Part shown: piece after piece, positions 8,746 through 47,014 of the stretch | Position numbering within the stretch: the first letter of the stretch is position 1 | Layout of the letters: the number at the start of each line of letters is the position of its first letter | Source: Bacteroidia bacterium | Lineage (GTDB): Bacteria > Bacteroidota > Bacteroidia > DATLTG01 | Direction of reading: 5' to 3' | Length of the DNA: 64,000 nt | Assembly: GCA_039924845.1 (NCBI GenBank) | Contig: JBDTAC010000054.1 | Coordinates: 41,308-105,307, forward strand | Made by a program: the position numbers and the translations under genes | Notes under the pieces: generated by a model | Told to the model about the DNA's origin: nothing | Databases searched by the model: none | The model's input: the letters and a program-made list of their open reading frames with translations, nothing else

Positions 8746-9456
8746 ATGCTCGACATTTCGAACGCAGCACACGTTATTTTGCTTGATAAACCGTATCGTT
8801 GGACGTCCTTCCAAGCGGTTAATAAATTAAAATATTTATTCCGACAAAAATACGGCACGAAAATAAAAATCGGTCATGCCGGAACCTTGGATCCTTTGGC
8901 AACAGGACTTCTCATCATTTGCACGGGGAAATTTACGAAAGAAATTTCCACTTATCAATCACAAGAAAAAGAATACATCGGAACTTTTTTTTTAGGCGCC
9001 ACAACGCCTTGTTTCGATAAAGAAAAAGAAATTGATTTTCATTTTCCCACCGAACACATCACTGAAAAAAAAATTCTGGAAGCCACAAAAAAATTCATCG
9101 GAGAAATCCAGCAAATTCCACCTATTTTTTCAGCCGTAAAAGTAAACGGAGAAAGAGCTTACGATAAAGCTCGCAGAGGCGATGAAGTGGAAATAAAACC
9201 CAGAATAGTTACGCTCAGCGAATTTGAAATTACGCGCATTCAATTACCGGAAGTGGATTTCCGAATTGTGTGCAGTAAAGGAACATATATCCGTTCCATC
9301 GCACGCGACTTTGGATTAGAACTAAATAGTGGTGCACACCTCACCGCACTTTGCAGAACACGTATCGGCGATTTTAAGCTCGAAAATACTTTGTCCGTCG
9401 AGGAATTTGAAAAAAAAATTTCCGAAGAAACACTCCCTAAAATCTTCTCGAAATAA
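8746..9456 (+). CDS. truB: tRNA pseudouridine(55) synthase
   Basis: VILLDKPYRWTSFQ and the catalytic-Asp motif GHAGTLDPLATGLL. Confidence 0.9.
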   Translation: MLDISNAAHVILLDKPYRWTSFQAVNKLKYLFRQKYGTKIKIGHAGTLDPLATGLLIICTGKFTKEISTYQSQEKEYIGTFFLGATTPCFDKEKEIDFHFPTEHITEKKILEATKKFIGEIQQIPPIFSAVKVNGERAYDKARRGDEVEIKPRIVTLSEFEITRIQLPEVDFRIVCSKGTYIRSIARDFGLELNSGAHLTALCRTRIGDFKLENTLSVEEFEKKISEETLPKIFSK

Positions 9457-9557
9457 TCTTTTTTCAAAGGACTTAAAAAAAAATATTTTTTTGCAGATAT
9501 TTGCTTAGCTTTGCAGGCTTAAAAAATACGTATTTCAAAAAAATTCAACTCCGCCTC

Positions 9558-10607
9558 ATGAAACTATCCCAGTTTAAATTTAATCTTCCGAAAGAATTAT
9601 TAGCAGAAAATCCTACGCAAAATCGTGATGAATCGCGCTTGATGGTGATTGACCGAAAAACAGGAAAAATCGAGCATAAAATATTTAAAGACATTCTTAA
9701 ATATTTTAACGATGGAGATGTGATGATTTTGAACGACACGAAAGTTTTTCCAGCTCGTTTATATGGAAATAAAGAAAAAACAGGCGCGAAAATAGAAGTG
9801 TTTTTGTTACGCGAATTGAATCGAGAAAGTCGTTTGTGGGACGTATTAGTTGATCCTGCCAGAAAAATAAGAATTGGAAATAAATTGTATTTCGGTGACG
9901 ATGATACGTTGGTGGCGGAAGTAATCGACAACACGACTTCTCGTGGAAGAACACTCCGTTTTTTATTTGACGGACCTTACGAAGAATTTAAACAAGCGGT
10001 TGAAAATTTAGGAGAAACACCGCTTCCAAAATACATTAAAAGAGAAGTAAAACCAGAAGATAAAGAACGTTATCAAACTGTTTACGCAAGTAAAGAAGGC
10101 GCAGTTGCCGCGCCAACAGCAGGTTTGCATTTCAGTAGAGAATTACTAAAACGCCTCGAATTAAAAGGTGTCAACTTTGCAAATGTTACCTTACACGTTG
10201 GTTTAGGAACTTTCCGTTCGGTAGAAGTAGAAGATTTGACGAAACATAAAATGGATTCGGAGCAAGCGGAGATCACCGAAAAAGCCGCACTTATTGTAAA
10301 CAAAGCAAAAGACGCGAACAAACGGATTTGTGCGGTTGGTACCACTTCGATGCGCACCATAGAAACTTCCGTTTCTACAGATGGACATTTGAATCCGTTT
10401 AATGGTTGGACCAATAAATTTATTTTTCCGCCGTATGATTTCAGCGTTGCCAATTGCATGGTAACAAATTTCCATACACCTGAATCTACTTTATTGATGA
10501 TGGTTTGCGCATTTGGCGGATACGATTTAATCATGAAAGCTTACAAAGAAGCTATCAAAGAAAAATATCGTTTTTACAGTTATGGCGATGCCATGCTAAT
10601 TCTCTAA
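9558..10607 (+). CDS. queA: S-adenosylmethionine:tRNA ribosyltransferase-isomerase
   Basis: [31 protein letters not shown]-terminus typical of QueA; ~350 aa. The start is trimmed to the internal ATG. Confidence 0.9.
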
Positions 10608-22355: not shown

Positions 22356-24401
22356 CTACCAGATTTCTGCTCTGTCTGCATCTGTGCGATAAAGTGCATC
22401 GCCTGGTTTTATATCAAATGCTTTGTAAAATTCCGGCATATTTGATAATGGACCATTCACTCTAAATTTACTTGGCGAGTGTGGATTGGTTTTAATTTGT
22501 TGTTTCAAAGCTTCTGGACGAATATTGTTTCTCCAGCCTTGTGCCCATGAAATAAAGAAACGTTGATCGGGTGTAAAACCATCTATTGTTCCTTCCGGAT
22601 GTTCTTGCAATGCCTTTTGGAACGCATGATACGAAATTGTTAATCCACCTAAATCGGCAATGTTTTCACCCAAAGTGAGTGCGCCATTAACATGCATGCT
22701 GTCAATTGCAATATCATTGTCAAATTGTTTTACTAAAATATTTGTTTTCTTTTTAAATTTAATACTGTCCTCTTTTGTCCACCAGTTGTTCAAATTTCCT
22801 TGCGGATCATATTGGCAACCTTGGTCATCAAAACCATGTGTAATTTCGTGTCCGATGATAGCTCCCATAGCTCCATAATTCATTGCGTCATCGCGATTAG
22901 GATCGAAGAATGGTGGTTGCATAATTCCGGCAGGAAAAACAATTTCGTTCATCGAAGGATCGTAATAGGCATTGATGGTTGGAGGTGTCATACCCCATTC
23001 GGTGCGATCAACTGGTTTGCCTAATTTATTGGCATCGCGTTTAAACGCATACACATTGGCTCTCATGTCGTTTTCAACATAGGAATCTTTGGTAATATTG
23101 AGCGATGAATAATCTTTCCATTTATCAGGATAACCTAATTTACGCATGATAACATCTAATTTTGCAATGGCTTTCTTTTTCGTTACATCACTCATCCAAT
23201 CGCGAGAATTGATACGCTCTTTGTAGGTTGCAATTAAATTGTCCACCATTTCGTTGACACGCTTTTTAGCATCTGCAGTAAAATATTTTTCTACATACAA
23301 TTTACCTAATGCATCGCCCAAAGCGCCATCAGTAGAACCTAACACGCGTTTCCATCTGGGTTGCATTGTTTTAACTCCGTATAAAACTTTACCATAAAAA
23401 GCGAAGTTTACGGCTTCAATGCTATCGCTCAAATAACGTGCTTCACTGTGTAATAAATCGAAGCGCAAATAAGCTTTCCAGTCGTTTACAGGAACAGATT
23501 TAAACATGTTATTCAGTTCGGAATAAAAATTTACTTGGGCAACAATTACATTGTCTGCATTTTTTATATCAACAGCAGATAAGTATGCGTTCCAATCAAT
23601 ATTAGGTGTGAAAGCAATTAATTGTTGCAATGTCTTTTTATTGTATTGAGCTTCTACATCACGCATTTCTACACGTGTCATAGATGCTTTTGCAAGTTGT
23701 GTTTCTATTTTAATAACAGTTGCAGCTTCATTTTTGCAAGCTTCTGGTGTATCGCCCATTAAGCCAAACATTTTTTCTAAGTAAGCAGCATATTCTTTTA
23801 CCAAACCAGCAGCAGCAGGATTCAAATAATAGTCTCTGTCTGGCAAACCTAATCCGCCTTGATACAACTGAGTAATCATTTGATTGCTTGCTTTTGGATC
23901 TTGACCAACACCAAAATTAAACATGGTATTTACGCCATTCACTTGTTCTTGCGCAACTACTGTAATTAAATCTTTGGTGTTTTTGATGTTATCAATCATT
24001 GCAAACTCCTCTTTCAAAGGAGACATGCCGTCTTTATTTAATTTAACAGAATCCATTCCGCTGGCATAATAATCACCCAGTTTTTGTGCATCACTTCCCG
24101 GTTTGGTATTTTTATCAGCAGAAAGGCTGTCTAATATTTGATGAAGCTCTTTTTGGTTACGATTTTCCACTTCGTTAAAACTGCCCCAAGAAACTTCTGC
24201 GGCAGGAATGGGATTGTTTTTTAGCCAATTACCATTCACATAATCATAGAAATCGTTTTTGGGACTAATCGTCGTGTCGAAGTTAGCTTTCACAATTTCA
24301 TCTTTGTATTGATCGGATGAATCTGTGGTTTTAGAAGCATTGTTACAAGCTGCCAAACCTATGATGGCAGCGAGCATCAGGAAAGAATTTGTTTTGTTCA
24401 T
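22356..24401 (-). CDS. M13-family zinc metallopeptidase (neprilysin/PepO-like) lipoprotein
   Basis: Lipobox LAACNN, the HEITHGFD zinc motif, a downstream ENIADLGG motif, and the NAYY and GxMQPPFF motifs of M13 peptidases. Confidence 0.9.
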   Translation of the reverse strand: MNKTNSFLMLAAIIGLAACNNASKTTDSSDQYKDEIVKANFDTTISPKNDFYDYVNGNWLKNNPIPAAEVSWGSFNEVENRNQKELHQILDSLSADKNTKPGSDAQKLGDYYASGMDSVKLNKDGMSPLKEEFAMIDNIKNTKDLITVVAQEQVNGVNTMFNFGVGQDPKASNQMITQLYQGGLGLPDRDYYLNPAAAGLVKEYAAYLEKMFGLMGDTPEACKNEAATVIKIETQLAKASMTRVEMRDVEAQYNKKTLQQLIAFTPNIDWNAYLSAVDIKNADNVIVAQVNFYSELNNMFKSVPVNDWKAYLRFDLLHSEARYLSDSIEAVNFAFYGKVLYGVKTMQPRWKRVLGSTDGALGDALGKLYVEKYFTADAKKRVNEMVDNLIATYKERINSRDWMSDVTKKKAIAKLDVIMRKLGYPDKWKDYSSLNITKDSYVENDMRANVYAFKRDANKLGKPVDRTEWGMTPPTINAYYDPSMNEIVFPAGIMQPPFFDPNRDDAMNYGAMGAIIGHEITHGFDDQGCQYDPQGNLNNWWTKEDSIKFKKKTNILVKQFDNDIAIDSMHVNGALTLGENIADLGGLTISYHAFQKALQEHPEGTIDGFTPDQRFFISWAQGWRNNIRPEALKQQIKTNPHSPSKFRVNGPLSNMPEFYKAFDIKPGDALYRTDADRAEIW

Positions 24402-24575
24402 GGAGTTTTTTTGTTTTTTCAGGATGCAATTTAGTCAAAAAATAGTACCAAATACATTCTATTAAAAATGAATGAAAAAGAGATTCCGAAAATTAATTTT
24501 TCAAACCGCTCTTTCCTCCTCAATAATGGGTGTGCTTACAAGCAGGTGTATTGATAATAAAGGAAGCGTTCCTTA

Positions 24576-25575
24576 TCAGTGAAGGATTATAATTTTATCT
24601 GCTTTTACTAAATTGCCTTCGCCATCTGTTATCCTGTAATAATACAATCCCGAAGTTAAATTGTTAGTGGAAAGAGTAGTAATATTACCTGATAATTCCT
24701 CACATTCCACTGCTTGCCCGGTGGTATTATATAAACAAATACTTCCTGATTTCAGTTGTTGCATATCTACAGCTACATTCAATAAATTAGTTGCTGGGTT
24801 TGGATATACTTTAACACTCACCTTAACAGGCTTTATTTCATTTACTCCTGTAAATAAACTATCCGCATAAATGCTATCTGTACTCACAATCACATCATCT
24901 ATGTAGTAATAGGCGTTTGTCCAATTATTTGATGATGAAGCTGAAGAATTAACAAAAACGGTATCTACATGTGCATCATCCACAAAATTGCCAATCACAA
25001 TATATTGTTCTCCTCCTACTGCCACAAAACTGCCGTTAACTTTCATCCAATTTACTTTATCTGTTAGTGGATTATGTGCCGTATCATTGCTTATTTGTGG
25101 GCTATAGTTGATGACAGTATCGCTGGTGAAAACTGTATTAATACTTGAAAAATAAGCGCCTATATTATTGCAAGCATATTTTTCGTTATCCGCCAAACTG
25201 ACATAAAACGTAACATAATATCTTATTCCACCTATCAGTGGACCTATCAAACTATCCTGTATATAATCTCTATTCTCAGGATAAGTTATAAGATAGGTGT
25301 AAATACCGGCATAAGACACTCCTGTATGAGCATATTGGTACCCATATCCATTTGAAGGAACACTCACAATGGCATTACCCGTGCATTGAGTAAAGTAACT
25401 GGGTCCCCCCCCCTCCTCCAGTCCAATATTTGGTGTAGCCAAAAAATTGGTCTGAAGTTGATGGACATTGAAGTTGGTTTTCAAAAGAATAATTAGGCAC
25501 TAAATTTTGCGCTTTTGTTTTCACTGAAAAGGAAAACACACAAAAGTAAAAAGAAAGAAAAATTATTTTTCTCAT
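24576..25575 (-). pseudogene. T9SS C-terminal-domain secreted protein disrupted by a +1 frameshift at a G9 homopolymer (phase-OFF or homopolymer miscall)
   Basis: A signal-peptide-bearing 66-aa ORF (25375..25575) and a 302-aa ORF (24576..25484) carrying a T9SS CTD are in frames offset by 1 nt. They meet at ggaggaggggggggg (9 G on the coding strand, 25405-25413). Removing one G fuses them into ...YTKYWTGGGGGPSYFTQCTGNAIV.... Confidence 0.7.
25405..25413. repeat. G9/C9 homopolymeric tract inside a coding sequence
   Basis: cccccccc-c run on the plus strand, in a genome region that is otherwise strongly AT-rich. Confidence 0.9.
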
Positions 25576-25776
25576 AAGTGGTAAATGAGTACCAAAGATA
25601 TGATTTTTATGATGTTCATTTTAAACCTTAGCTGATTTCTTTCCAAAGAAGAAGGAAAAAGTTGCTCTTGCATTTGCTGTATCAAGTAGTGGATAGCGAT
25701 TTTCTGCCTGTTCAATTCTTTCTTTTCAATTTTAATCATTTTAAAGAGAACTTACCTATTATAGAGCTGTTAGCAT

Positions 25777-26000
25777 GACACTAAGAACTGTGAGTGAGGC
25801 ACTAAGAACTATAAGTAAGGCACTAAGAGCTGTGAGTAGGACACTAAGAACTCTTAGTATGACACTAAGAACTGTGAGTGAGGCACTAAGAACTGTTAGC
25901 ATGACACTAAGAGCTGTGAGGTAGACACTAAGAACTGTGAGTGAGGCAGTATGAATTGTGACTGAGGCAGTCTAAGCTATGAGTAGGACACTCACAACTC
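25777..26000. repeat. Imperfect 21-bp tandem repeat array (~11 units, consensus CACTAAGAACTGTGAGTGAGG)
   Basis: ctaaga recurs at 25780, 25802, 25823, 25844, 25865, 25886, 25907 and 25928 (period 21, first unit 22), with two or three further degenerate units. The array lies 200-430 bp upstream of the frameshifted T9SS gene start and downstream of the M1-like gene stop. Confidence 0.85.
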
Positions 26001-26222
26001 ATTTATTGACAGTTTGAGTATCCGTTTCCGTACCCGAAGTGTCGTCCGTGGTAGTTGAAGAAGTAATTTCTTTCTGAAAAAATATTCGAATCGTTTTCCA
26101 ACGCGCGGATTCTGAATCAAGTTCAGAATCACATTTGCGCTTGCATTTTCTTATTGGTACATCTGCACATTCTCAAATTTCCAAATCAATTCTCCATTCT
26201 AAATTTTCAATTCTGCATTAAG

Positions 26223-29200
26223 TTAAAACGCTCTTTCTACTGCAATGATCCATCTAAATTGAAAAAAGCCTTGATCAGTTGCCGGTGGATGATTCAAAAA
26301 CAAAGGCATATCAAAACGTATTGTCAAAGGATAAACTGTTTGTAAGGGTCCCCAACGTTGTATGGTAAGTGCTGTCCCTACACCTGCATCTGCACGTAAA
26401 TTGCCAAATGCAAGAGTGTTTTGAATTTCATTATCGTTGATAAATCCGGCATCTCCGAACAAATAAGTTGCCAAGTGAAAATAGTTTTTTAGAAAACGGG
26501 GATTGAATTTTACCACATTATTAAACTCTAATTCCGCATTTACAGCCGCACCAGAAGTGCCTTTATAGGTATAAACAATGTTGCCATTTTTATCCATTTC
26601 GGGCGCTAAATAATCCGCATAACCGCGTAAATTAAGTCCGCCACCAGCTTGGAACGGACCCATTGAAGAACCGAAACCTGCCATACTCTGAGAAAAAGCT
26701 CCCGCAGAACGCGTAAATTTATCGTCCATCATTTCTTCTGGATTGGCGCCTGCTAAATACAAAGCGGATTCATCGGGCGTATTGGTGCCCATGCCGTATT
26801 GTGCAATCAAACGCGTAAGCAATTTAAGTTTCCAAATGTTTTTTTTATTGATGTTGGTGATGTTCAAATTGCTGTAATTGTAATCGTTGGTGAGCGCGCT
26901 CGCTTTTAACTCGGCAATGATAGTTCCGCTGTATCCGTGCGTATTGTAGGTGTGTTCGATTCCGAAATTAAGGGTATTATTGAATTTCTGCACTTCCCAT
27001 TCTTGCGGATCTAAGAGGTAATTAAGCGAATATTCGCTTGGACGATACATTGTTTTAAAATAAACATACACGCGATTTTTTAAAGAATTATCTTTCTTCT
27101 CGAAACCTATTTTAGCGGCATTTAAACCATCCAATACTTTCGCAGATAAAAACACATCCGAATGCGGCATAAAGTTATCCGTAGCTGTTTTGTAAGAAAG
27201 TGTAAATGAAATTTTATCAAATTTATTGATACCGGAATCCGAAACTTGTCTTTGAAACATACCTGTATTAAACCAAAAAGTAGCATCAAAAACATGATAG
27301 TAATTGAGGTAATCTCCGTGTAAATGCAAGCCTGCTTTTAATCCATCGTAATTATTGTACCAGGCATCGGGGCGCGCTAAAAAAGTATATTTTGTCCAAT
27401 CGGGCGTGTTGTAAATTTTCGAATCAAAGGCGGATTTAACAGGCTTTTTATAACTGTTATCAAGCATGTAAACATCTGCTAAACGATGTGAAGGATCAAT
27501 TTGTACATCTGCAATTCCATTCGGAATAGTTACCGTTGCTTGATACGTTGGTTCTATTTTGGTTCCCCAGCCAATCCAATGTTTCAACACTATAGCTTTT
27601 GTTTTTTTAGTGAACCAAGTATTCGGAATGTAAAAATGAAAAACGCTGTCGTTGTTATTAATCACATCAAAATCAATCGGCATTTGCATTTCGCCTTTTC
27701 GTTTAAATGTGATAATATATTGATTCGGTGATTTCCCTTTTTTTACGGAAGATACCGCATAATCAATGGTTTTAGTAGTCGTCATCCATTCATCAAAAAA
27801 CCAATTCAAATCTACGTGCGTGTAATTAATAACCGAATTTCTGAAATCCATTAAATACGGATGACAAAATTTCCATTGATTAAAATAATGCTGCATTGCT
27901 TTTAAAAACAAACTGTCACCAAGCACATATTGCAAATTGTACAACATCGTAGCCGTTTTAAAATACACCTGACTGTATCCGCCGCCGTGAGCAACTGCGC
28001 CGTTAAAATCGTCCGAATGCGTATTGAGGGTTACTGGGAATCCGAAAATATTATTAAACATATACCCATTGTAAACATTGGTATTTCGAACCAATGTAGA
28101 ATCTCTATAACGATTTACATACGCTGATTTTTCAGGATTTTGAATGTCGTGTAAACCATCAATGTGTTCTAAGTCCCAGGAAGTCATAAACTGCGTAAAG
28201 CCTTCGTCTAAAGCCGCGCGGTAAGTTTCATTATTGGAAACCATTGCAAAAAACCAGTTATGACTGATTTCATGCGCCAACAAACTTCGATAACTCGGAT
28301 CAAAACCACCATCCAGCGTAAGCATCGGATATTCCATGCCATCGCGTGCATCCGCCACAATCATTTTCGGATACGCATACATTCCAATACTTTCCGAATT
28401 TGTTTGAATTACTTTTGCCGTAAATTCAGCTGCATTTTGCCAGCCCGAAGCGTGTTGTTCCTGTGCTAACGCGATGCATTTAATTCCGTGCCAATCGACT
28501 TCTCCAATACGAAAAGTTGGATCCGCAACAAGCGCAAAATCAAAAACATTTTCTGCATGAAATTTCCACGTTTTATAAGTTCCATCCGGTTTTATGATTT
28601 CAGATGGCGCAGATTCCCACGGTTTATCTTTAAAATTTTTGATATCCAACTTTTCGCGTAAATCGCCTGGATACATTTCTTTTTCGTTTAACAATGTTCC
28701 CGTTGCACCCACAATATAATTATTCGGGAAAGAAATTTCTGCATCAAACGTTCCGAAATCACCGTAAAATTCGTGTCCGAGATGCTGATCTGTTTGCCAA
28801 CCAAATTTACGATCGTACACCGCAATACGCGGATACCAATGCACTAAATCGTATTGTTTGTAACCAAAAGCATTGAAACTTTTCATTCGGCGACGCATTG
28901 TTCCGTGATCGAAATACGTTTTAAATTCAATGTGAAAAGTAACCGATCCGCCTGTTTTTAAAGGCGTTAAAAGCAATGCCTTCATAATCGTATTGTCTGT
29001 TTCTGTTTTTAATTCGATTCCGTTTATCGTAATTTTTGAAACAACCAATCCTAATTTTTCTTTTTCATAACGACCGAAAGAAAGCTTCTGACCATTGTTT
29101 TTAGATAGATTGGCATAATAGGAATTCGGCTGAAAAGCATCTTGATACAAATGAAAAAAAACGAAAGCCAAGGTATCGGGCGAATTATTCCAATACGTTA

Positions 29201-29426
29201 AATCTTCCGAGCCATCCACAATATCTGTGGAATCATTCAACGTCGCTTTTATTTTATAATACACATATTGCTGCCAATAATCAGCAGACGGTTTTTTATT
29301 TTTCCAGTAATAAGGATTTTCCGACGTTCGATACGTGTTGGGCGGAAAAGAAAAATTTGTTTGCGAATGTATTTTCGGTAAAAAAAGAAGTAGTAAAAAA
29401 AGCGATAGTAAAAATATTTTTTTCAT
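26223..29426 (-). CDS. M1-family (gluzincin) metallopeptidase domain fused to a ~450-aa C-terminal domain that ends like an outer-membrane beta-barrel
   Basis: Signal peptide, then HEISHNWFFAMVSNNETYRAALDE, i.e. HExxH-(18 residues)-E, the M1 zinc signature. The long C-terminal extension is rich in alternating aromatic/polar stretches and ends ...FRWIIAVERAF, with a terminal Phe as in OMP barrels. Confidence 0.7.
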   Translation of the reverse strand: MKKIFLLSLFLLLLFLPKIHSQTNFSFPPNTYRTSENPYYWKNKKPSADYWQQYVYYKIKATLNDSTDIVDGSEDLTYWNNSPDTLAFVFFHLYQDAFQPNSYYANLSKNNGQKLSFGRYEKEKLGLVVSKITINGIELKTETDNTIMKALLLTPLKTGGSVTFHIEFKTYFDHGTMRRRMKSFNAFGYKQYDLVHWYPRIAVYDRKFGWQTDQHLGHEFYGDFGTFDAEISFPNNYIVGATGTLLNEKEMYPGDLREKLDIKNFKDKPWESAPSEIIKPDGTYKTWKFHAENVFDFALVADPTFRIGEVDWHGIKCIALAQEQHASGWQNAAEFTAKVIQTNSESIGMYAYPKMIVADARDGMEYPMLTLDGGFDPSYRSLLAHEISHNWFFAMVSNNETYRAALDEGFTQFMTSWDLEHIDGLHDIQNPEKSAYVNRYRDSTLVRNTNVYNGYMFNNIFGFPVTLNTHSDDFNGAVAHGGGYSQVYFKTATMLYNLQYVLGDSLFLKAMQHYFNQWKFCHPYLMDFRNSVINYTHVDLNWFFDEWMTTTKTIDYAVSSVKKGKSPNQYIITFKRKGEMQMPIDFDVINNNDSVFHFYIPNTWFTKKTKAIVLKHWIGWGTKIEPTYQATVTIPNGIADVQIDPSHRLADVYMLDNSYKKPVKSAFDSKIYNTPDWTKYTFLARPDAWYNNYDGLKAGLHLHGDYLNYYHVFDATFWFNTGMFQRQVSDSGINKFDKISFTLSYKTATDNFMPHSDVFLSAKVLDGLNAAKIGFEKKDNSLKNRVYVYFKTMYRPSEYSLNYLLDPQEWEVQKFNNTLNFGIEHTYNTHGYSGTIIAELKASALTNDYNYSNLNITNINKKNIWKLKLLTRLIAQYGMGTNTPDESALYLAGANPEEMMDDKFTRSAGAFSQSMAGFGSSMGPFQAGGGLNLRGYADYLAPEMDKNGNIVYTYKGTSGAAVNAELEFNNVVKFNPRFLKNYFHLATYLFGDAGFINDNEIQNTLAFGNLRADAGVGTALTIQRWGPLQTVYPLTIRFDMPLFLNHPPATDQGFFQFRWIIAVERAF

Positions 29427-32321: not shown

Positions 32322-33680
32322 ATGAATGAGATAAAAAATACGGCATACATCGAGAATCTTGAATTCACGCAGTATCTACTATTTGCGATATCTGTATTTT
32401 TTATTTTTCTGATTTCATGGTTGATACAAAAACGGAAAATAAAAACCAACCCTCTTTACAAATATTATACAAGAGGGGTGATGACAAAAATTTTTGGAGC
32501 TTTCGTTTTTTGCATGGTGTACATTTTTTATTACCACGGTGGAGATACGATTTCTTATTTTGAAACATCCCGAGCTTTAACAAATTTGATGGTGCAAAAT
32601 CCGAATGATTTTTTAACTGTAATTAGCCAAAAAGCAAGTATTGAAAATTATTATTTATTTGATGGTCATACAACTGGATATCCTTGGCCTTATATGTATT
32701 ACGACTCGAAAACCTTTTTTGTAGCTAAATTATTGGTTCCGTTTCTATTTATATCTTTTAAAAGCTATTTGCTTGCCAGCGTCCTATTAGCTTGGGCTTC
32801 CTTTGTAGGTATTTGGAAAATGTTTTTAATGTTCGGGAAATTATATCAAGAAATATCTGTTCAATTAGCCATTGCAGTTTTATTTATTCCTTCCGTTGTT
32901 TTTTGGGGATCAGGGATTTTAAAAGATACGATAACGCTATCTGCTTCCTGTTGGTTTATTTATGCTTTATACAATTCTCTCATCATAAAAAATAAACGAG
33001 CTAAAAATTTTTTCATATTATTTTTAAGTGGCTATGTGATTTTTGCCATCAAGCCATATATTTTATTTGCCTTGCTTCCAGGTGGTTTAGTATGGATTAT
33101 CTACGCACGTATTTTAAAAATTAAAAATAAATTTTTCAGATACTCTGTTATTCCCTTGATATATTTGATAAGTTTTGGAGGCGGATACGCCCTTTTAAAT
33201 TCAATGAAAAACTCTATGAGCATTTCCGGCTTATTGGAAGAAGCATCTGTGAAACAAAACGATTTAAAAAGCACTGATTACGAAGGACATTCATTTGATA
33301 TTGGAAGTTATGATCCCTCAATAGCAGGAGCTTTGAAAGCTTCTCCGGCTGCAATTGTTGCAGGATTGTACCGACCATTTATTTGGGAATCAAGAACTGT
33401 AATGATGTTATTATCTGCACTGGAAAACACGGTTTATCTCGGATTAACCTTGTGGATATTACTACGTATCAATGTGTTTCGCTTGTTACGTATTATTCTC
33501 GATAATCCTTTGATACTTTTTTGTTTATCTTATGTTTTATTTTTCGCACTAATAGTGGGTTTGTCCACTTCTAATTTTGGCTCCTTGGTGCGATTTAAAA
33601 TTGCCTACGCTCCCGAATTTTTAAGCGCATTATTCATCATAAATTATTTTAGAAAAGAGAAACGGAAGCTAAAAAACTAA
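32322..33680 (+). CDS. Hypothetical polytopic membrane protein (>=10 predicted TM helices)
   Basis: 452 aa, highly hydrophobic, with no recognisable catalytic motif. It borders the polysaccharide locus. Confidence 0.45.
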   Translation: MNEIKNTAYIENLEFTQYLLFAISVFFIFLISWLIQKRKIKTNPLYKYYTRGVMTKIFGAFVFCMVYIFYYHGGDTISYFETSRALTNLMVQNPNDFLTVISQKASIENYYLFDGHTTGYPWPYMYYDSKTFFVAKLLVPFLFISFKSYLLASVLLAWASFVGIWKMFLMFGKLYQEISVQLAIAVLFIPSVVFWGSGILKDTITLSASCWFIYALYNSLIIKNKRAKNFFILFLSGYVIFAIKPYILFALLPGGLVWIIYARILKIKNKFFRYSVIPLIYLISFGGGYALLNSMKNSMSISGLLEEASVKQNDLKSTDYEGHSFDIGSYDPSIAGALKASPAAIVAGLYRPFIWESRTVMMLLSALENTVYLGLTLWILLRINVFRLLRIILDNPLILFCLSYVLFFALIVGLSTSNFGSLVRFKIAYAPEFLSALFIINYFRKEKRKLKN

Positions 33681-34549
33681 ATCTTTTTTTCGTAAAATCC
33701 TTTGATGCTGTCACCCATTTTAAAAAGAGACAACAATGTGTTGATCGAATTTTTTATCACTTTCAAAAGTATATTCTGTTCTATTTTACCTCGTAATTCC
33801 TGATCTTCATCAACTTGGGCATTCGAAAAATTATTTTTTTGAATGCTTTTTTTAAAGCGTTTTATACTGATTCCAGTTGTGTCTAATTTTATTTTCCGAA
33901 AATTATTTTTTTGAAAAAATACATTAATCGTTTTGGGTGTGTAATACGAAAGATGTTCGGGATACTCTATCACATTCCAATTCTGTTTTAAAACCAATCG
34001 ACTTATCGAATTAAAATTAGGCGTTGTAAAATAAAAAAGTCCGCCAAGCCTCAGAATTTCACGAATATTTTCCAGTTCACTTTGCGGATTATTGATATGC
34101 TCAATCACTTCAAAAGAAGTAATCACATCAAAATTATCTTTGGAATAATTGGCAGAATTTAAAATTCCTTGATGGATTGTAATTCCTTTTTTTACACAAG
34201 TTTCCATCGCTTCATCCGTAAATTCAGTACCGAAAGTTTGCCAACCTCTTTTTTTAGCGACTTCCAAAAAATAACCATCTCCGCAACCGATGTCTAATAT
34301 TTTATTTGTTTTTCGATATTTTTCAAACGCGTCAAGTAATTCTTCGTAACGCTTTATCGTAATGGCAGAAATCTCTCCACCACGTTTATATTTTTGATAA
34401 TGTGCAATAAGTTCAGTTGTTTCAGGAATACGTTTTCCGAAAACAAAATTACATTTTTGGCATTGCACCAAATACGCATGTTGGTAATTTTCCAATTCTA
34501 CCAAACAATCGGAATTGCATAACAAACAAGCAGAATGAGTTGCGTACAT
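33677..34549 (-). CDS. Class I SAM-dependent methyltransferase with an N-terminal Cys4 zinc-ribbon
   Basis: CLLCNSDC...CQKCNF ribbon and motif I ILDIGCGDGYF. Confidence 0.75.
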   Translation of the reverse strand: MYATHSACLLCNSDCLVELENYQHAYLVQCQKCNFVFGKRIPETTELIAHYQKYKRGGEISAITIKRYEELLDAFEKYRKTNKILDIGCGDGYFLEVAKKRGWQTFGTEFTDEAMETCVKKGITIHQGILNSANYSKDNFDVITSFEVIEHINNPQSELENIREILRLGGLFYFTTPNFNSISRLVLKQNWNVIEYPEHLSYYTPKTINVFFQKNNFRKIKLDTTGISIKRFKKSIQKNNFSNAQVDEDQELRGKIEQNILLKVIKNSINTLLSLFKMGDSIKGFYEKKI

Positions 34550-34553
34550 TTTA

Positions 34554-35579
34554 TTATTCAGCTAAATTTTGTTCCCATTTCCAAGCCGTTTCCATCATCG
34601 CATCCAAATCGAATTTCGGTTTCCAACCCAATTCTTTTTCTGATTTCGAAGTGTCGGAATAAATCGCTTCTACATCGCCATCACGCCTTTCGCCCATTTC
34701 AAAATTTAATTTTTTACCACTTATTTTTTCAAAAGAATGAATGGCTTCCAAAACACTTACGCCATTTCCTGTTCCTAAATTATAGGTGGAAAAATTTTCA
34801 GAAATGTCATCGGAAATTATTTTTTTCAACGCAATAACATGAGCCGAAGCAATATCGCAAACATGCACGTAATCACGAATACACGTTCCATCACGCGTTG
34901 GATAATCGTGTCCGAAAACAATCATTTTTTTTATCTTTCCGATAGCCGTTTGCGTAATTACAGGAACCAAATTATTGGGCTTGTTAATCGGAAATTCTCC
35001 AATTAAAGCGGATTTATGTGCGCCCACCGGATTAAAATAACGTAAAGCAATTACTTGAAGTCCTTTATTGGCAATAGTATAATCGCGTAAAATAGTTTCA
35101 CCAATTTGTTTCGTGTAAGCATAAGGAGATTCCGCTTTTCCGAGTAGTGTGGTTTCTTGAACAGGCAGTTTATCAATATTTCCATAAACAGAACAAGAAG
35201 AAGAAAAAATAATTTTTTCGATATTGAATTTGTTGGCAGCATTTAAAATACTGAGTAAGGAATTAATATTATTGTGATAATATTTTGCCGGATTTTCAAC
35301 CGATTCAGGAACCGATTTAAAAGCGGCAAAATGAATGATACCAATAATATTTTTTTCAGTTTCAAAAACTTTTTCTACTTCCGATTGATTGCATAAATCA
35401 ATGTTGTAATTTTTTACTTTTTTGCCCGTAATTTTCTCAATTCGATCAAAAGTTATTGCGGATGAATTGGAAAAATTATCTATTGAAATCACTTCAAAAT
35501 TAGTATTTTCGAGTAACTCAATAATCGTGTGCGAACCAATATAACCCGCACCTCCCGTAACAATTATTTTAGATTCCAT
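34554..35579 (-). CDS. galE: UDP-glucose 4-epimerase (SDR family)
   Basis: VTGGAGYIGSH Rossmann motif and the catalytic YAYTK (YxxxK). Confidence 0.85.
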   Translation of the reverse strand: MESKIIVTGGAGYIGSHTIIELLENTNFEVISIDNFSNSSAITFDRIEKITGKKVKNYNIDLCNQSEVEKVFETEKNIIGIIHFAAFKSVPESVENPAKYYHNNINSLLSILNAANKFNIEKIIFSSSCSVYGNIDKLPVQETTLLGKAESPYAYTKQIGETILRDYTIANKGLQVIALRYFNPVGAHKSALIGEFPINKPNNLVPVITQTAIGKIKKMIVFGHDYPTRDGTCIRDYVHVCDIASAHVIALKKIISDDISENFSTYNLGTGNGVSVLEAIHSFEKISGKKLNFEMGERRDGDVEAIYSDTSKSEKELGWKPKFDLDAMMETAWKWEQNLAE

Positions 35580-36771
35580 AAATTTGTTTATACACTTTTT
35601 CAGCGATTTCAAAATTACGATACTTTTCGGCAATCGGTCTAATTTTATTATACAACTCGTTTCGCGAATTATTTTTCAATAAAGCATCTATTTCTTTAAT
35701 TGATTTTAGATACGCTTCTGGATTTAGTTCTTCCAACACACTCCCAATTTTATTTTCACGAATAATATCTGAATCTTCCGAAATATTTTTTGTAATGACA
35801 ATCGGCAAACCTAAAGCCCAATATTCACCATCTTTTATAGGAGTGCAATATTTTTTTGTCGACACTGATTTTACAGGAGTGATAGCGAAATCAGCCAATC
35901 CAATATAATTAGGAATTTGTTTATGTGGAACAAATTGGTGTACAATTGTTTCCTTTTGTAATCCTGATTTTTCAATCATGGTATTAATTTCATCTTTACT
36001 TTGCGATGAAAGCAATAGCACTCGAAAATTATTTTTCCAGTAATTTTCTGCCACTTTAAAAAAATCAAACACTTCATTTTCTAAATAAATTCCACCAAAT
36101 TTCCCAGCATAAACACATACTATTTTATTTTTAAAATTTAAATCATTTAGTAATTTTTCATTTTTGATATTTTTGTCGGAAAACATATATAAATCAACAC
36201 AAGCAGGCTTCACGAAAAAATTATCTTTTTGATAATTGTATTTTTCTTTCGCATATTTTTTCATCTCTTCTGTAGCTGAAATTAAATACAATGCACGATT
36301 TGCTTGTAACTTCTCGAGTTTAAAAAGTAACTTAAAGGCAATACTACTTTTTTTCCAAGAGCCATTTTCGACCATCGCTTCCGCATGTGGTTCAAAACTA
36401 TCAATAATTAATTTTGTTCCTGTCAAAACAGATAATATATATCCCATTCCTCCAGCGGGAGTGCACCAAGCATGGATAATAGAAATTTTTTGTTCGCGAA
36501 TTAATAGAATTAATTGGAATACTGTTCTTATCCACATAATTAATCCTCGCCAGCCTAAAGGCTGGTATAAAATACTGATATTTTCAATATTATTTTCTGT
36601 CCGAGTTGTTTCTTTTTGAGATTTTTTTTTATCAAGTGTAACTAAAAATAATTTGTTTTCGGAGGAAATTTGTTCAGCAATTATTCTCACATAAGGAAGC
36701 GTATAAGTTTGTATCAAAGCATCTTGATAATCCCAATAAGTTAGAATTAAAATATTTTTTTTCGGAATCAA
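35569..36771 (-). CDS. Glycosyltransferase, GT4/GT1-like (GT-B fold)
   Basis: 400 aa with two Rossmann-like halves and a C-terminal nucleotide-sugar-binding region typical of GT4. Confidence 0.75.
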   Translation of the reverse strand: MIPKKNILILTYWDYQDALIQTYTLPYVRIIAEQISSENKLFLVTLDKKKSQKETTRTENNIENISILYQPLGWRGLIMWIRTVFQLILLIREQKISIIHAWCTPAGGMGYILSVLTGTKLIIDSFEPHAEAMVENGSWKKSSIAFKLLFKLEKLQANRALYLISATEEMKKYAKEKYNYQKDNFFVKPACVDLYMFSDKNIKNEKLLNDLNFKNKIVCVYAGKFGGIYLENEVFDFFKVAENYWKNNFRVLLLSSQSKDEINTMIEKSGLQKETIVHQFVPHKQIPNYIGLADFAITPVKSVSTKKYCTPIKDGEYWALGLPIVITKNISEDSDIIRENKIGSVLEELNPEAYLKSIKEIDALLKNNSRNELYNKIRPIAEKYRNFEIAEKVYKQIYGI

Positions 36772-37658
36772 AATACCAAATGTTTTAGTATTGCAAAAAA
36801 ACGTCTCGAAAAAATAATTTTCTGATTAACTTTTATTCCTTTTAATAAATAATAGATAGCAGTTATTTTATTTTTTTTCACAAGTGCTAAATGTAAGGCA
36901 ACATAGGTATAACAGCTCGATTTGAATTTATGCAAATCATTTTTATAATACGAAACGATTTCTGAATTCTGTAAAACCATTTTCATAAATAAGTCTATTC
37001 TTTCTATTAATTTATTTTTATCGGTTTGTAAAACGCTGCGCTCATCGTGATTAATAATAGCAGAAGTAATAACATTGTTGCAATGTATTTTGTATTTACA
37101 AGCTAAACGCAGCCATAATTCCCAATCTTCCATGACAGCTAATTCTCTATCTTCACTAAATAAATTTTGTTGTGCAATTCCTTTTCGCAAAAAAACGCCT
37201 TGACAACTCATTAAATTACCTTCAATTAATTTTGTGTTGATATTACCCTCACACACAGGCATTTTTCGAATAACATCTCCATTTGTTTTTTTTATTTCGT
37301 AACGAAGATGAATAATTTCAGGAAAATTATTTTTTCTAATGATTTCGTTCGCAACCTCTAAATGGTTGGGATAAAAAACATCGTCTGAATCTAGAAAAGT
37401 GATATAATTTCCTTTTGCCAATTTTGTTCCAAAATTTCTTGCTGCGCCGCGCTCTGCGTTTGATTTTTTATAATATACAATTCTTTTGCTGTTGATCGAT
37501 TTTATAATTTCTTCGGTATTGTCGGTACTGCCATCATCAACAACAATAATTTCATAATAAGCATAAGTTTGTTCAAGTGTACTTTTTAAAGTGTTTTCAA
37601 TTAAATGCGCTCGATTATAAGTAGGGATAATTACTGTAAAAAAAATATTATTCTCCAT
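36768..37658 (-). CDS. Glycosyltransferase family 2
   Basis: N-terminal TVIIPTYNRAHLIENTLKS...VVDDGSTDNT; DxD present (DSDD). Confidence 0.85.
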   Translation of the reverse strand: MENNIFFTVIIPTYNRAHLIENTLKSTLEQTYAYYEIIVVDDGSTDNTEEIIKSINSKRIVYYKKSNAERGAARNFGTKLAKGNYITFLDSDDVFYPNHLEVANEIIRKNNFPEIIHLRYEIKKTNGDVIRKMPVCEGNINTKLIEGNLMSCQGVFLRKGIAQQNLFSEDRELAVMEDWELWLRLACKYKIHCNNVITSAIINHDERSVLQTDKNKLIERIDLFMKMVLQNSEIVSYYKNDLHKFKSSCYTYVALHLALVKKNKITAIYYLLKGIKVNQKIIFSRRFFAILKHLVF

Positions 37659-38763
37659 AAAGCTTTTCTAATTTAGTAATCATTACATCCATCGAAAATA
37701 TTTTTTTTATACTTTTTTTTCCTTCTTCAATTATTTTTTCTTTTAAGGGTAAATTTTCTATCAGTTGTATTATATTCGTTGCAATTTGTTCTGAATTTTT
37801 AAATGGAACAACAAGTGCGTTTTCATTGTGTTTTATATAATCAGCTGCAATGCCTGACAATGACACAACCGATGGAACTCCTGCCGCCATTGTTTCAATA
37901 TATACTTGTCCGAAGGCTTCACTTTTTTCATCGATCGGAGCATGAACAAAAATATCAAAGAGTTGGTAGAGCGCGAATATATCTTCTTCAAAATTTATTT
38001 CTGTGTAATTATTTTTTGGTAGCTCGCTTAATAATGTTTCAATTTCATTTTTATACGGACCGCCTGCATTTGCCAATACCAAATGTGCATTGGGATATAT
38101 TTCAATTATTTTTTTAAATGCGGGAATAATATATTGGATTCCTTTCCAATGAATGTACCTTGAAATTACTCCAATTACGGGAGATTTCGGTTTCAAACTA
38201 AAATTTCGCGCAATTACATTTTCAATTCTCTCTTGCGAAATATTTTCAAATTCTTCTAATTGGAATCCGTGATGTATCAATATTATTTTACTTGGATTCA
38301 CATGTTCCATTTCTACCAAAATGTTTTTTACATTTTCGCTAATGGCGATAATATCAGTAGAAATTGAATTGATGTATTTATCGTATTTAACTGCTTGTGG
38401 ATGATATTGATGATGAATGGTTGCGTTGTGCCGCGTGTGAATTCTTTTTTTTATGCCCAATATTTTTGCCGCAGTAAGGCCAACAATGCACGCATCAAAT
38501 AAATGACAATGAACAATATCTATTTTTTTCTGCTTTAATATTCTCATTATTTTAAAAATAGCAAGCGGAATATCATTTTTGTTTTTATAATTTACACGAA
38601 ACGTAGGAATATCTTTTTTGATTAAAAAATTTTCTAAAGGCGAATTTTGATTATTTAAAAGTATAAAAAAAAGTTCAAACTTAGATGAATCAATATCCTC
38701 AGCAATCCATTCAAAAGCAACGGATTTATTGACAGAGGAAATTATGTAAGCTATTTTTTTCAA
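37648..38763 (-). CDS. Glycosyltransferase, GT4-like
   Basis: 371 aa GT-B architecture with the C-terminal EX7E-like region (AFGQVYIETMAAGVP). Confidence 0.75.
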   Translation of the reverse strand: MKKIAYIISSVNKSVAFEWIAEDIDSSKFELFFILLNNQNSPLENFLIKKDIPTFRVNYKNKNDIPLAIFKIMRILKQKKIDIVHCHLFDACIVGLTAAKILGIKKRIHTRHNATIHHQYHPQAVKYDKYINSISTDIIAISENVKNILVEMEHVNPSKIILIHHGFQLEEFENISQERIENVIARNFSLKPKSPVIGVISRYIHWKGIQYIIPAFKKIIEIYPNAHLVLANAGGPYKNEIETLLSELPKNNYTEINFEEDIFALYQLFDIFVHAPIDEKSEAFGQVYIETMAAGVPSVVSLSGIAADYIKHNENALVVPFKNSEQIATNIIQLIENLPLKEKIIEEGKKSIKKIFSMDVMITKLEKLYGE

Positions 38764-38862
38764 ACTTAGTTTGGTGTCAAAATTCTATATGATAATTAAA
38801 AAAGTTGATGTAATTTATTTTTCGTTTCAGAATTATAAATGGTTAATTTAAGAGTTCCTATT

Positions 38863-39771
38863 TTACAATTCCAAGCTCAATGCCGCAATCGTGCTTCCGT
38901 AAAATTTGTATCTTATTTGTTGAGGCAGAATCTTAAACAAACTGGAATTTTCAATAAAATTAACAGAAAAATTTGACTTCAATATTTGATAAATTAGTTT
39001 ACGTAAAAAATTAATTTTATAATCCGTTTCTTTTTTGAAAAAGCTTTTATAATCTGGATTGTCTGCAAAAATTTTTTTTTTCGATTCGATATAACATCTT
39101 TGCCGTTTCGCATAATACCTTAACGTAATCTTATCATTATGAATAGATGTTATATTTAAATCAAAATACGATGGAATGTTTTTACACAAAGCGCGCAATC
39201 CAAATTCAAAATCATAACCATCTCTAAGTGTTTCATCAAAATTACCTATTGCTTCAAAAACTTCTTTTGTAAAAGACATATTAGCGGTAGTAATAACAAA
39301 ATTTTCAAAATTCACTTTTAAAGGCTCTGTTCCATTATTGGTAATTTTTTTCCACTCATTTTCCATGTGTATTTTATATTTCTCTATATCTGTTGAAATG
39401 GAATCTTGAACTGTATTTGCCGCACCAGATAATAAACATTGCGGATATTTTTCGTGATGTTCAATGTGTTTTTGAATCAAATTATCTGAAGCAATAATGT
39501 CGTCATCCAATAAAATTATCAAGCCTTCCTTTATTCTTGATAGCGCATTATTATTTGCTTTTGATGCTCCCGAATTTACTTGTGTATAAATATCTATCTT
39601 GTATGGATAAGTGTTTTTAATATGCTGGATTTTTTGAAAAGTATCATCCAGAGATCCGTCATCCATTACCAAAACATTAAAATTCGAACAAGTTTGATTT
39701 TTGAGCGAATCAAGTGTTTGGATTAATTTTCCAACGCGATTGTAAGTAGGAATTACAACAGTAATACTCAT
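38863..39771 (-). CDS. Glycosyltransferase family 2
   Basis: ITVVIPTYNRVGKL...VLVMDDGSLDDT; DDD motif. Confidence 0.85.
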   Translation of the reverse strand: MSITVVIPTYNRVGKLIQTLDSLKNQTCSNFNVLVMDDGSLDDTFQKIQHIKNTYPYKIDIYTQVNSGASKANNNALSRIKEGLIILLDDDIIASDNLIQKHIEHHEKYPQCLLSGAANTVQDSISTDIEKYKIHMENEWKKITNNGTEPLKVNFENFVITTANMSFTKEVFEAIGNFDETLRDGYDFEFGLRALCKNIPSYFDLNITSIHNDKITLRYYAKRQRCYIESKKKIFADNPDYKSFFKKETDYKINFLRKLIYQILKSNFSVNFIENSSLFKILPQQIRYKFYGSTIAALSLEL

Positions 39772-40781
39772 ATTTTTTTTCGTGAAAATTTATTTTTTAG
39801 TCTAAATTTATTAAAATAATATTTGGAACAAGCCTCTGAAATATAGAGGTTTGATTGTCTATATTTTTGCAAAGTTTTGAATCCTTTTGATGCAAAATCG
39901 GTACAAATTTCGAACCAGACCCAAGCTAATACATTGTTAAAATCACTTATCGGAAACAAAGTTATTTTATTATTTGCATTCTTTAATTTCAACAACCAAT
40001 TCTCAACACTTGTTAAAAATTCAGGCTCATAGCTGTAATCAATAAAAAATATTTTTTGATGAATGTACGATTCTTTTTTATTAGGATTAATTCCCATCTT
40101 TGAAAATAAATTGGAATGAACATCAAATACCGATGCTAATTGAGTTTCCCTTTTTACTACCGAAATTTGCTCAGCATGTTGTCTATAACGCAACATCATT
40201 TCGGGAATTAACGCGTAATCCGTGCTATCAAAAGCGTTTATCCAAAAAGCATAATCTTCTGCATGAGGATAATTTTTATCGTAATTCAGATTTGATTTTT
40301 TTAGAATATCCGAACGAAACATAATGGTTGGATGCGATAAAATATTATCAAAAAATAATCTTGCTTTAATTTCATTTGAATTTAAAATACGCTTACGATA
40401 CACTTGTTTTTTATTTTTCTGAATATAAGTACCTACAATTCCAACTCGAGGATTATTCTCAAGCAGTTGTACTTGCTTGAGAATTCGCTGAGGCATACTG
40501 TAATCATCTGCATCCATCCTTGCAATGTATTTACCTTTTGCCTTTGTTAATCCATCATTCAATGTTTCAATAATTCCACGATTCTCTTTATAGCTAATAA
40601 CCCGAATTCTCGAATCTTTATAGTTGTTTATAATTGTTAACGAATTGTCTGTAGAACCATCATTTATAATCAAAAAATCAATGTTTTTATATGTTTGATT
40701 CAATATACTTTCAATCGCTTCTTCTAAAAATGAAGATGCGTTGTAAGCGGGCATTAAAACAGTTACTAAAGGCTGATCCAT
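39768..40781 (-). CDS. Glycosyltransferase family 2
   Basis: VTVLMPAYNASSFLEEAIESILNQTY...LIINDGSTDNS; DADD motif. Confidence 0.85.
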   Translation of the reverse strand: MDQPLVTVLMPAYNASSFLEEAIESILNQTYKNIDFLIINDGSTDNSLTIINNYKDSRIRVISYKENRGIIETLNDGLTKAKGKYIARMDADDYSMPQRILKQVQLLENNPRVGIVGTYIQKNKKQVYRKRILNSNEIKARLFFDNILSHPTIMFRSDILKKSNLNYDKNYPHAEDYAFWINAFDSTDYALIPEMMLRYRQHAEQISVVKRETQLASVFDVHSNLFSKMGINPNKKESYIHQKIFFIDYSYEPEFLTSVENWLLKLKNANNKITLFPISDFNNVLAWVWFEICTDFASKGFKTLQKYRQSNLYISEACSKYYFNKFRLKNKFSRKKI

Positions 40782-41656
40782 GATGCTGGGTATATAGTCG
40801 AATCAAAATTATTATCCGGTTTTTTAAACCACTTTTTAGGTGCTACAACAATTTTATTCGGATTTGTATTGAGCCATGCACCCCACCAAGAAAATGTGCT
40901 GTTGGCAATTATATTGTGCGAACAATTTTGCATTAAAAATAATTCTTCCACTTCCCCTAAATTTTCATGGCTGACAAAAATTGATTCGGTTTCAAATTTC
41001 AAATTTTCACGACACCACGCTATGTCGTCCGAAAAAATAAATATTCCAAAAGCATTTTCTTTGCTGTAATTTATTATATATTCTAATGCTTTATCGTAAT
41101 AATCGGAAGAAAGAATTGTGTAAAAGTGATTATATTTATTAATATAATCACCCCTTCTAACATGTACAGCAATTGAATTTTTATATTTTTTAATTTTACT
41201 TAACAGATCTTGTGCAAAAGGTGTTATTGTTTTTTTTAAATGCAAGTCTTGCCTTAACTGTATTTCAATTTCTTTAAAATACAAATATGATTGCCAAAAG
41301 CCTTCTAAATAAGAATTTACTGGAATTTTAACCATATTTGAATCAAAACCTTTTTTAGATTCGATAACGTAACTGTTTTTGTAATAGGGTAATAAATTCC
41401 TTTCCAGAAATCGTTTCAATTTGGAAACGATTTGCGGGTTTAAAATTTCTTCTGAAGATTGTATTCTTGGAATTTGCTGTATTGTAAACTCATCTAAATA
41501 TAAAACACGTTTTGTTGCTCCGGCACTTGTAAATTCAGAATCATAAAAAGATACATCAATAGCAATTTGTGCGTTTAATTTTTTCTTTATGCTTAACGCC
41601 AATGCGTACTGAAAAAGCTGATTTCCTAAGCCTCCTTGAAAACGAACTACAATCAT
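40766..41656 (-). CDS. Alpha-1,2-fucosyltransferase (GT11 family)
   Basis: N-terminal RFQGGLGNQLFQYA, the GT11 motif I hallmark; ~296 aa. Confidence 0.85.
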   Translation of the reverse strand: MIVVRFQGGLGNQLFQYALALSIKKKLNAQIAIDVSFYDSEFTSAGATKRVLYLDEFTIQQIPRIQSSEEILNPQIVSKLKRFLERNLLPYYKNSYVIESKKGFDSNMVKIPVNSYLEGFWQSYLYFKEIEIQLRQDLHLKKTITPFAQDLLSKIKKYKNSIAVHVRRGDYINKYNHFYTILSSDYYDKALEYIINYSKENAFGIFIFSDDIAWCRENLKFETESIFVSHENLGEVEELFLMQNCSHNIIANSTFSWWGAWLNTNPNKIVVAPKKWFKKPDNNFDSTIYPASWISL

Positions 41657-42408
41657 TTTTTACGAGCAAGTATGTGAAATCCGAAATTCAATAATTCTTC
41701 CGATCCTTTATTTTTTTTAGAAAATTTCACAAGCATTTTATACACAATTCCAATCGCTTTGCTTTCTATAAAAGATTTTTTTTGATTGGTATATTTTTCA
41801 GCTATCGAAGTCACCCTACTCATTTCCTGTTTTAAAAATTCGAAATAATTTCCATTGGCAGTAATTTCGAGAATTTCAAATTCATTTTCGATAAGGTGTT
41901 TTTCATAAAAATATTTATTAAACCCTGAATAATAATGGTAAGGTGCAAAATGAGTCATACTGCAAAAAGGCGCAGTAATAATTAAATAGCCTCCTTTTTT
42001 TAATAATCTGTCAAATTCTTTAATGGCAGCAATCGGATTCGGTATATGTTCAAAGACTTCTGTACACATAATAGCATCAAAACTTTTGTCTGGCTCAGGA
42101 ATATCAACAATATCCGAAACAATATCCAATTTCCCATAATCCCATTGATGCATTTGCAAGCCATTTTTGACTTCATCAGGTTTGTATTGGGCAAAATCTT
42201 GCGACATATAATTTAAATGTGCACAAAAATTTTTAAACTGCTGTTCTCCTGCACCTGCATCAAGAATACGCAAACCGGAAGGGATTTTTTCCAATGTTTT
42301 TTTTAACCAAACAACTCGATTAATCTCATTTATATTATTTTGTTGATCATCCATGATTTTCCCATTTATTCTTTTTAACAAAAATTGTGTTGATGTAAGT
42401 ATCAGCAT
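41653..42408 (-). CDS. Class I SAM-dependent methyltransferase
   Basis: Motif I LRILDAGAGEQQF and a downstream acidic motif (IVSDIVDIPEPD). The true start may be the internal MDDQQ. Confidence 0.7.
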   Translation of the reverse strand: MLILTSTQFLLKRINGKIMDDQQNNINEINRVVWLKKTLEKIPSGLRILDAGAGEQQFKNFCAHLNYMSQDFAQYKPDEVKNGLQMHQWDYGKLDIVSDIVDIPEPDKSFDAIMCTEVFEHIPNPIAAIKEFDRLLKKGGYLIITAPFCSMTHFAPYHYYSGFNKYFYEKHLIENEFEILEITANGNYFEFLKQEMSRVTSIAEKYTNQKKSFIESKAIGIVYKMLVKFSKKNKGSEELLNFGFHILARKK

Positions 42409-44977: not shown

Positions 44978-44999
44978 AAAATAATTTTTTTTAATGTCA

Positions 45000-46190: not shown

Positions 46191-46194
46191 CCTT

Positions 46195-47013: not shown

Positions 47014-47014
47014 T

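Follow-up and report, generated by a model that had tools for sequence, protein, structure and literature searches.

Homopolymer contingency loci are textbook biology of a few host-adapted pathogens, and surface genes under homopolymer control are found in Helicobacter pylori, Neisseria and Haemophilus. Phase variation in Bacteroidota is known mainly in the form of promoter inversion: in Bacteroidales, invertible promoters and shufflons at capsule and surface-protein loci are rearranged by recombinase-driven, site-specific inversion. The closest counterparts of the locus studied here are the poly-G/C contingency loci of Campylobacter jejuni, the subject of two reviews (PMC8355987, PMC8437040): uncommon G runs within genes, about 8-13 nt long, which lie near the 5' end in an AT-rich genome and set the reading frame ON or OFF.

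We analysed a 64-kb stretch of DNA (hereafter, the window) from a MAG labelled "Bacteroidia bacterium", in which one gene is interrupted at a long G run. At the level of sequence, this locus has the features that define the poly-G/C contingency class. The two cases share a surface-acting target, orthologues that either bear the tract or are "locked" by interrupted codons, and several loci per genome with combinatorial states. They differ in host, here an uncultured and probably free-living Bacteroidia MAG and not a host-adapted pathogen, and in target, here a CBM-like protein of the T9SS cargo type and not a glycosyltransferase, capsule or LOS gene. A further difference is that a single conserved position of the structure, in a poly-Gly loop, holds the tract throughout a whole paralogous family, and that the switching is one that we infer. 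With the inversion systems of Bacteroidales, the locus shares the phylum and the presumed purpose of stochastic surface variation; it differs from them in that slippage would be the mechanism, with no inverted repeats or invertase involved at the window locus. The literature searched (one library) yielded no paper describing phase variation by homopolymer for T9SS cargo or for Bacteroidota.

The initial annotation of the window, made from its letters, had described a run of nine G on the coding strand, with a 66-aa fragment bearing the signal peptide on one side and a 302-aa ORF with a T9SS C-terminal sorting domain (CTD) on the other, had noted that deleting a single G restores one frame of about 333 aa, and had considered such a run very unlikely to arise by chance. 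All of this held up. The forward strand carries C9 at the site, which is G9 on the coding strand, and both the ORF map and the domain matches reproduce the split (Table 1). The 66-aa ORF reads ...YTKYWTGGGGG and is then followed by 10 out-of-frame residues and a TAA stop, while the true coding part of the 302-aa ORF begins at 25404, directly after the tract. When one G was deleted in silico (G8), a 332-aa ORF with the junction WTGGGGGPSYFTQC resulted. Adding two G's (G11) gave 333 aa and a loop of six Gly, so that G11 is as valid an ON length as G8; this six-Gly loop matches the loops of P0007 and P0009, the two homologues that have the window protein's PSYF/PSYY motif 3' of the poly-Gly loop. 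The remaining lengths tried, G7, G9 and G10, are all out of frame and leave products of 66-70 aa; a change of one repeat unit toggles the gene between full-length (G8/G11) and truncated (G7/G9/G10) products.

The tract is the sole G/C run longer than 6 nt in the window, the next in length being one run of 6 and five runs of 5. Depending on the background model, the number of G/C runs of at least 9 nt expected in 64 kb is 0.013 (iid) to 0.028 (first-order Markov). Codon usage does not account for it either: across the long ORFs of the window GGG is rare, contributing 6.9% of 1100 Gly codons, and the dicodon GGG-GGG is found in 0 of their 78 Gly-Gly pairs. The run thus exceeds both chance and codon usage and has the length, about 7-8 nt or more within an ORF or promoter, that marks a homopolymer as a simple-repeat contingency locus. 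The possibility of a poly-G artefact of two-colour chemistry was ruled out, the run being short and internal and its flanks aligning codon for codon with homologues.

Table 1. Features of the split gene and of its surroundings, in window coordinates
Feature	Position	Strand	Details
Whole split gene	24576..25575	-	332 aa at G8, 333 aa at G11 (in-silico tract editing)
G9 homopolymer, frameshift site	25405..25413	-	Read as GGG GGG GGG in the N-terminal frame, where it supplies the final three Gly of WTGGGGG
N-terminal fragment ORF, 66 aa	25375..25575	-	MRKIIFLSFYFCVFSFSVKTKAQNLVPNYSFE...WTGGGGGTQLLYSMHG, then stop; signal peptide, NLVPNYSFE...C...W motif, poly-Gly
C-terminal ORF, 302 aa	24576..25484	-	Counted from the first TTG; overlaps the 66-aa ORF in another frame
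Putative Sec signal peptide	25510..25575	-	Residues 1-22, MRKIIFLSFYFCVFSFSVKTKA, cleavage before Gln23; judged by eye and alignment
CBM-like beta-jelly-roll domain	24879..25403	-	Restored residues ~58-232
T9SS type-A C-terminal sorting domain	24585..24809	-	Restored residues 256-330
M13 peptidase, neighbour	22356-24401		Intact
M1-like peptidase, neighbour	26223-29426		Intact
Further CTD-bearing cargo genes	4850-7255 and 52133-54106		

The restored protein is made of four parts: a signal-peptide-like N-terminus, a segment of the form NLVPNYSFE..C....W-(Gly)n-..YFT.C, a beta-sandwich core and a type-A T9SS CTD. It aligns end to end with homologues of 323-364 aa at 50-74% identity, and the NLVPNYSFE...C...W motif is nearly invariant across the family alignment. 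In every full-length homologue aligned, the N-terminus is hydrophobic and closes with (A/S)Q immediately ahead of NLVPN; in the window protein, KA precedes the Q at the putative cleavage site. The C-terminal domain matches PF18962 (E=1.6e-12; 48 bits, cut-off 27) and TIGR04183 (E=3.5e-10; 39.7 bits, cut-off 23), placing it above the curated cut-offs as in T9SS type-A cargo, and CTD fold matches were found for it as well. With a signal-peptide-like N-terminus and a T9SS CTD, the protein would act at the cell surface, a location suggested by its domains. It has in common with known type-A cargo (RemA, mirolase, gingipain adhesin domains) the PF18962/TIGR04183 CTD, a start that looks like a signal peptide and a passenger of the beta-sandwich, binding type, but differs from those examples in that its passenger domain matches no Pfam or NCBIfam family. 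The passenger resembles CBM4/22/16-type modules at the fold level only, and by sequence the beta-jelly roll falls into no curated CBM family. We conclude that the product is probably a T9SS-exported, glycan-binding protein held at the surface, CBM-like in its fold only. Because the OFF allele parts the signal peptide from everything else, it is expected to be a functional null. Upstream of the gene, TATCTTTG at 25592..25599 (-), 16 nt from the ATG, fits the Bacteroidota -7 consensus, TAnnTTTG; such matches are frequent in AT-rich DNA, and it is a weak candidate for a promoter box. Rfam, sigma-70 and terminator scans of positions 24300-26400 returned nothing meaningful.

Public annotation conceals this structure. 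NCBI lists the gene (P0001) with 263 aa only, at 24576-25365 and from an internal GTG, so that both the signal peptide and the frameshift are hidden. The same annotation pattern at the tract site is seen in the truncated calls P0006, P0037, P0121-P0123 and P0104. Two of these, P0006, which starts 'MGGGLSYYTSHC' (MGGGLSYY...), and P0104, which starts 'MDRGGGLSYYTAHC' (MDRGGGLSYY...), look, on their first residues, like gene calls begun at an out-of-frame tract. Annotation pipelines thus render such genes N-terminally truncated and mask the signal peptide together with the switch. In the alignment, P0001 is 74% identical to its closest paralogue. The accession series indicates that P0001, P0002, P0003 and P0006 share one MAG, deposited twice; judging by accession numbers, this source MAG seems to carry four paralogues or more, of which two are intact across the loop and two truncated there. 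The MAG contains MEO6883787.1/MEO7088303.1, with P0001 on a contig of 138,748 bp, and the three other paralogues are MEO6882594.1, MEO6883143.1 and MEO7087773.1. Tandem paralogues are also present in three of the relative loci (L082, L085, L089).

A protein search with the window gene retrieved 373 relatives, and uncultured Bacteroidota are the source of every one. In the closest subfamily, many members align with a run of 4-6 Gly at exactly the position of the tract, and at least four consecutive Gly stand at the site in 21 of the 108 hits that have the N-terminal motif; as judged from the alignment, the poly-Gly loop encoded by the tract is conserved in the subfamily. To the DNA itself we turned in about a dozen family members, reading each at the tract site. 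G9 in frame was found in L002 (P0036), in L067 (a Flavobacteriales MAG of 56% GC) and in two genes of L082, gene 1 (P0004, with the same in a second sample, L083) and gene 2 (P0008), and L089 (P0019) has G12 in frame; the same codon site is occupied by an in-frame G9 or G12 in at least five other genes of the family. In L088 (P0037), the tract is G10 and out of frame, and the signal-peptide part is split off exactly as in the window. The corresponding glycines of L081, L084, L085/86, L087 and gene 3 of L089 are written in mixed GGA/GGT/GGC codons with no run. Such tract-less coding is found in about half of the subfamily members with DNA read, and therefore the protein itself does not require the tract. 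Since the tract-bearing homologues are only 31-62% identical to the window protein, synonymous sites should be saturated, and with a GGG usage background of 9-21% in their loci, three to four consecutive GGG at one site in six to seven genes cannot be put down to neutral codon choice. A scan of genome contigs with the family alignment gave, among the matches listed, only distant members (31-45% identity), with neither close orthologues nor the source MAG among them; a scan of metagenome contigs with the restored protein gave one locus, with the tract interrupted.

Broken genes were found in 2 of the 7 cases with a run of at least 9 at the site and in 1 of the 113 without (Fisher p=0.009), a comparison that is biased, as P0037 was examined because it looked truncated. 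We left L087 out of the frameshift counts, since genes elsewhere on its contig are split: at 9437-9962 (ENA contig_16553), a response-regulator gene is divided into a Response_reg ORF of 74 aa and a Trans_reg_C ORF of 117 aa, with many short ORFs nearby, and the contig gives the impression of long reads assembled without correction, so that its frameshifts are uninformative.

G/C runs were also met at other places in the relatives. The isolate genome of Acidiluteibacter ferrifornacis S-15 (L058, 4100-4108) contains a distant family member with an in-frame G9 (SYGGGFTF); this run shares the N-terminal segment of the tract but not its position, being located some 10 codons upstream of the conserved Trp. 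In the Flavobacteriaceae MAG JALWUJ010000053.1 (L056, 8675-8684), a C10 run covers codons 6-9 of an unrelated gene, which reads MKFNFTPPPQVLCHCYNYIGLF and then stops; with C9, the frame would instead give MKFNFTPPLKYYAIVITILACFNGFSQG..., a signal peptide. The case adds a further out-of-frame G/C tract at the 5' end of a gene for an exported protein in Bacteroidota.

The most direct view of tract variation comes from the P0037 gene. Its 90% cluster contains three more gene calls, which differ in their N-termini, and in the DNA the tract is G9 in L090 (GCA_027392095.1) and G10 in L091 (GCA_027356085.1), L092 (GCA_021781235.1) and L088. L090 and L091 are identical across 4034 nt apart from one G in the tract, L092 equals L091 across 4035 nt, and a C8 run 1.3 kb from the tract is constant in length. 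The in-frame lengths of this gene are G8 or G11, so that each of the four assemblies is OFF, and between them they show both wrong frames; the 288 codons 3' of the tract stay open. The four assemblies (GCA_027392095.1, GCA_027356085.1, GCA_021781235.1 and ERZ27236853) may come from related samples. Tract length is thus polymorphic at the homologous site, as G9 versus G10 within this gene and with lengths of 9, 10 and 12 across genes.

We lean, by a modest degree, towards the view that G9 in the window gene is a hypermutable contingency tract, a slipped-strand ON/OFF switch caught in the OFF state in the consensus. The gene would encode a Sec- and T9SS-exported, CBM-like and glycan-binding protein that is held at the cell surface and whose N-terminal Cys-Cys loop holds a poly-glycine written as a long G run. 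Slippage of the polymerase on this run during replication would gain or lose single G's: with G8 or G11, the full-length protein would be made (ON), and with G9, translation would end 10 codons past the tract, and the portion with the CBM and the CTD would lack its signal peptide (OFF). As several family members share the mutable site, a population would contain several surface proteins, some ON and some OFF, as at classical contingency loci. High-frequency, reversible switching at the window locus is what we infer, together with surface display, glycan binding and any selective benefit, escape from phage or grazers for example. The proposal in the initial annotation of a slipped-strand switch that is OFF at G9 is carried only part of the way by these data: G9-G12 recurs at the homologous site and one homologue has a single-G polymorphism, but no ON/OFF pair of one gene was found. 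Its suggestion of comparing tract lengths in relatives bore fruit in the same measure, with lengths of 9, 10 and 12 at the homologous site but only one version of the window gene in the collections. Neither a full-length (ON) version of the window gene, in a collection of 5.8 billion proteins, nor one of the P0037 gene, in the protein collection, was found; this is absence from databases only and a weak negative.

The first alternative is a miscount in sequencing or assembly, with a true tract of G8 (or G11), an intact gene and G9 as a consensus error. We consider this unlikely. It draws on the origin of the sequence, which, coming from a MAG, is a population consensus, and on homopolymers being the commonest site of indel errors, but the other homopolymers of the window speak against such a source of error: 53 A/T runs of at least 8 nt (8-10 nt) lie inside its long ORFs with the frames unbroken, and runs of at least 7 nt number 141 inside intact long ORFs, all of them A/T except the G9 tract, where an indel-prone platform would have broken several. 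With A/T runs intact in a window of which 90% is covered by long ORFs, a general homopolymer-indel problem of the assembly is unlikely. We saw no other broken genes in the 64 kb; the other long ORFs scanned are intact and most have full-length Pfam matches. The perfectly intact downstream frame is what one would expect of a whole gene, and the G9/G10 difference among homologue assemblies could in principle be technical noise; G10 was, however, called in three separate homologue assemblies and G9 for P0004 in two samples, so that calls are usually reproducible, and a second paralogue of the same MAG (P0006) also seems truncated at the tract.

Alternatively, the window gene could be a plain pseudogene: slippage would have inactivated one redundant paralogue at a mutational hotspot that is not kept for switching, and the copy would be decaying. 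The family is multicopy, making the loss of one copy cheap, and the lack of an ON version in the databases agrees with such a loss, yet the OFF copy has not decayed. Neither of the OFF genes has a second lesion, with 302 codons open in the window gene, in a genome of 34% GC, and 288 in P0037, and the family-invariant residues are retained. The all-OFF P0037 assemblies also fit a dead gene, their two wrong frames being as expected for a tract that drifts without selection; against this, the GGG runs at the same site in distant homologues, contrary to codon bias, point to a tract that is maintained or constantly regenerated. On balance, we regard simple gene death as quite unlikely.

Programmed recoding, in which G9 is functional and the full-length protein arises through RNA-polymerase slippage or ribosomal +1 frameshifting on the G run, is very improbable: transcriptional slippage can arise at long homopolymers and GGGG-type sites permit re-pairing of tRNA-Gly, making leaky expression from G9 conceivable, but efficient transcriptional slippage is known on A/T runs, programmed frameshifts are conserved among homologues whereas five of the seven tract-bearing genes here are in frame, the corrections needed differ (-1 or +2 for the window and L090, +1 or -2 for L091) so that the homologues have no conserved shift in one direction, and the Rfam scan found no stimulatory RNA element.

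Returning to the slipped-strand switch, the broader proposition would be that free-living, uncultured Bacteroidia have a whole family of paralogous CBM-like surface proteins, secreted by the T9SS, with a conserved poly-G contingency site, and with a random subset of the proteins displayed by each cell; this we advance tentatively, the chances being somewhat against it. If true, no slipped-strand "phasotype" system would, within the literature searched, have been described earlier for either T9SS cargo or environmental Bacteroidota, and the plausible driver of this one would be pressure from phage or grazers, not host immunity. If the site does switch, T9SS cargo and uncultured Bacteroidia of the environment would join the known cases of slipped-strand bet-hedging, and a G run of at least 8 in the W-(Gly)n-YF loop would serve as a signature for variable surface proteins in MAGs.

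Some further features of the window deserve mention in their own right. The intergenic stretch at 25763-25999, 190-420 nt upstream of the start of the split gene and just downstream of the M1-like peptidase gene, consists of a tandem repeat with a 21-nt unit (consensus CACTAAGAACTGTGAGTGAGG) in about 9-11 copies, also readable as 42- and 63-nt super-units. The repeat is open in frames of both strands, giving heptad-like ORFs of 47 and 49 aa; it was not found elsewhere in the window nor in 92 relative loci, and it has no Rfam match. The region 33677-47902 has a GC content of 28-33%, against about 35% elsewhere, and carries a polysaccharide biosynthesis cluster, possibly an O-antigen or capsule locus acquired by horizontal exchange. 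Its genes encode several glycosyltransferases (GT2, GT4 and GT11), a sulfotransferase, methyltransferases of the FkbM type and an ABC exporter of the Wzm/Wzt type that includes a Wzt_C domain. At 48604-51315, a 903-aa ORF contains four stretches matching Dala_Dala_lig_C and two matching Dala_Dala_lig_N, and appears to be a tandem-duplicated or fused Ddl; it is followed by a gene for a PASTA-domain protein.
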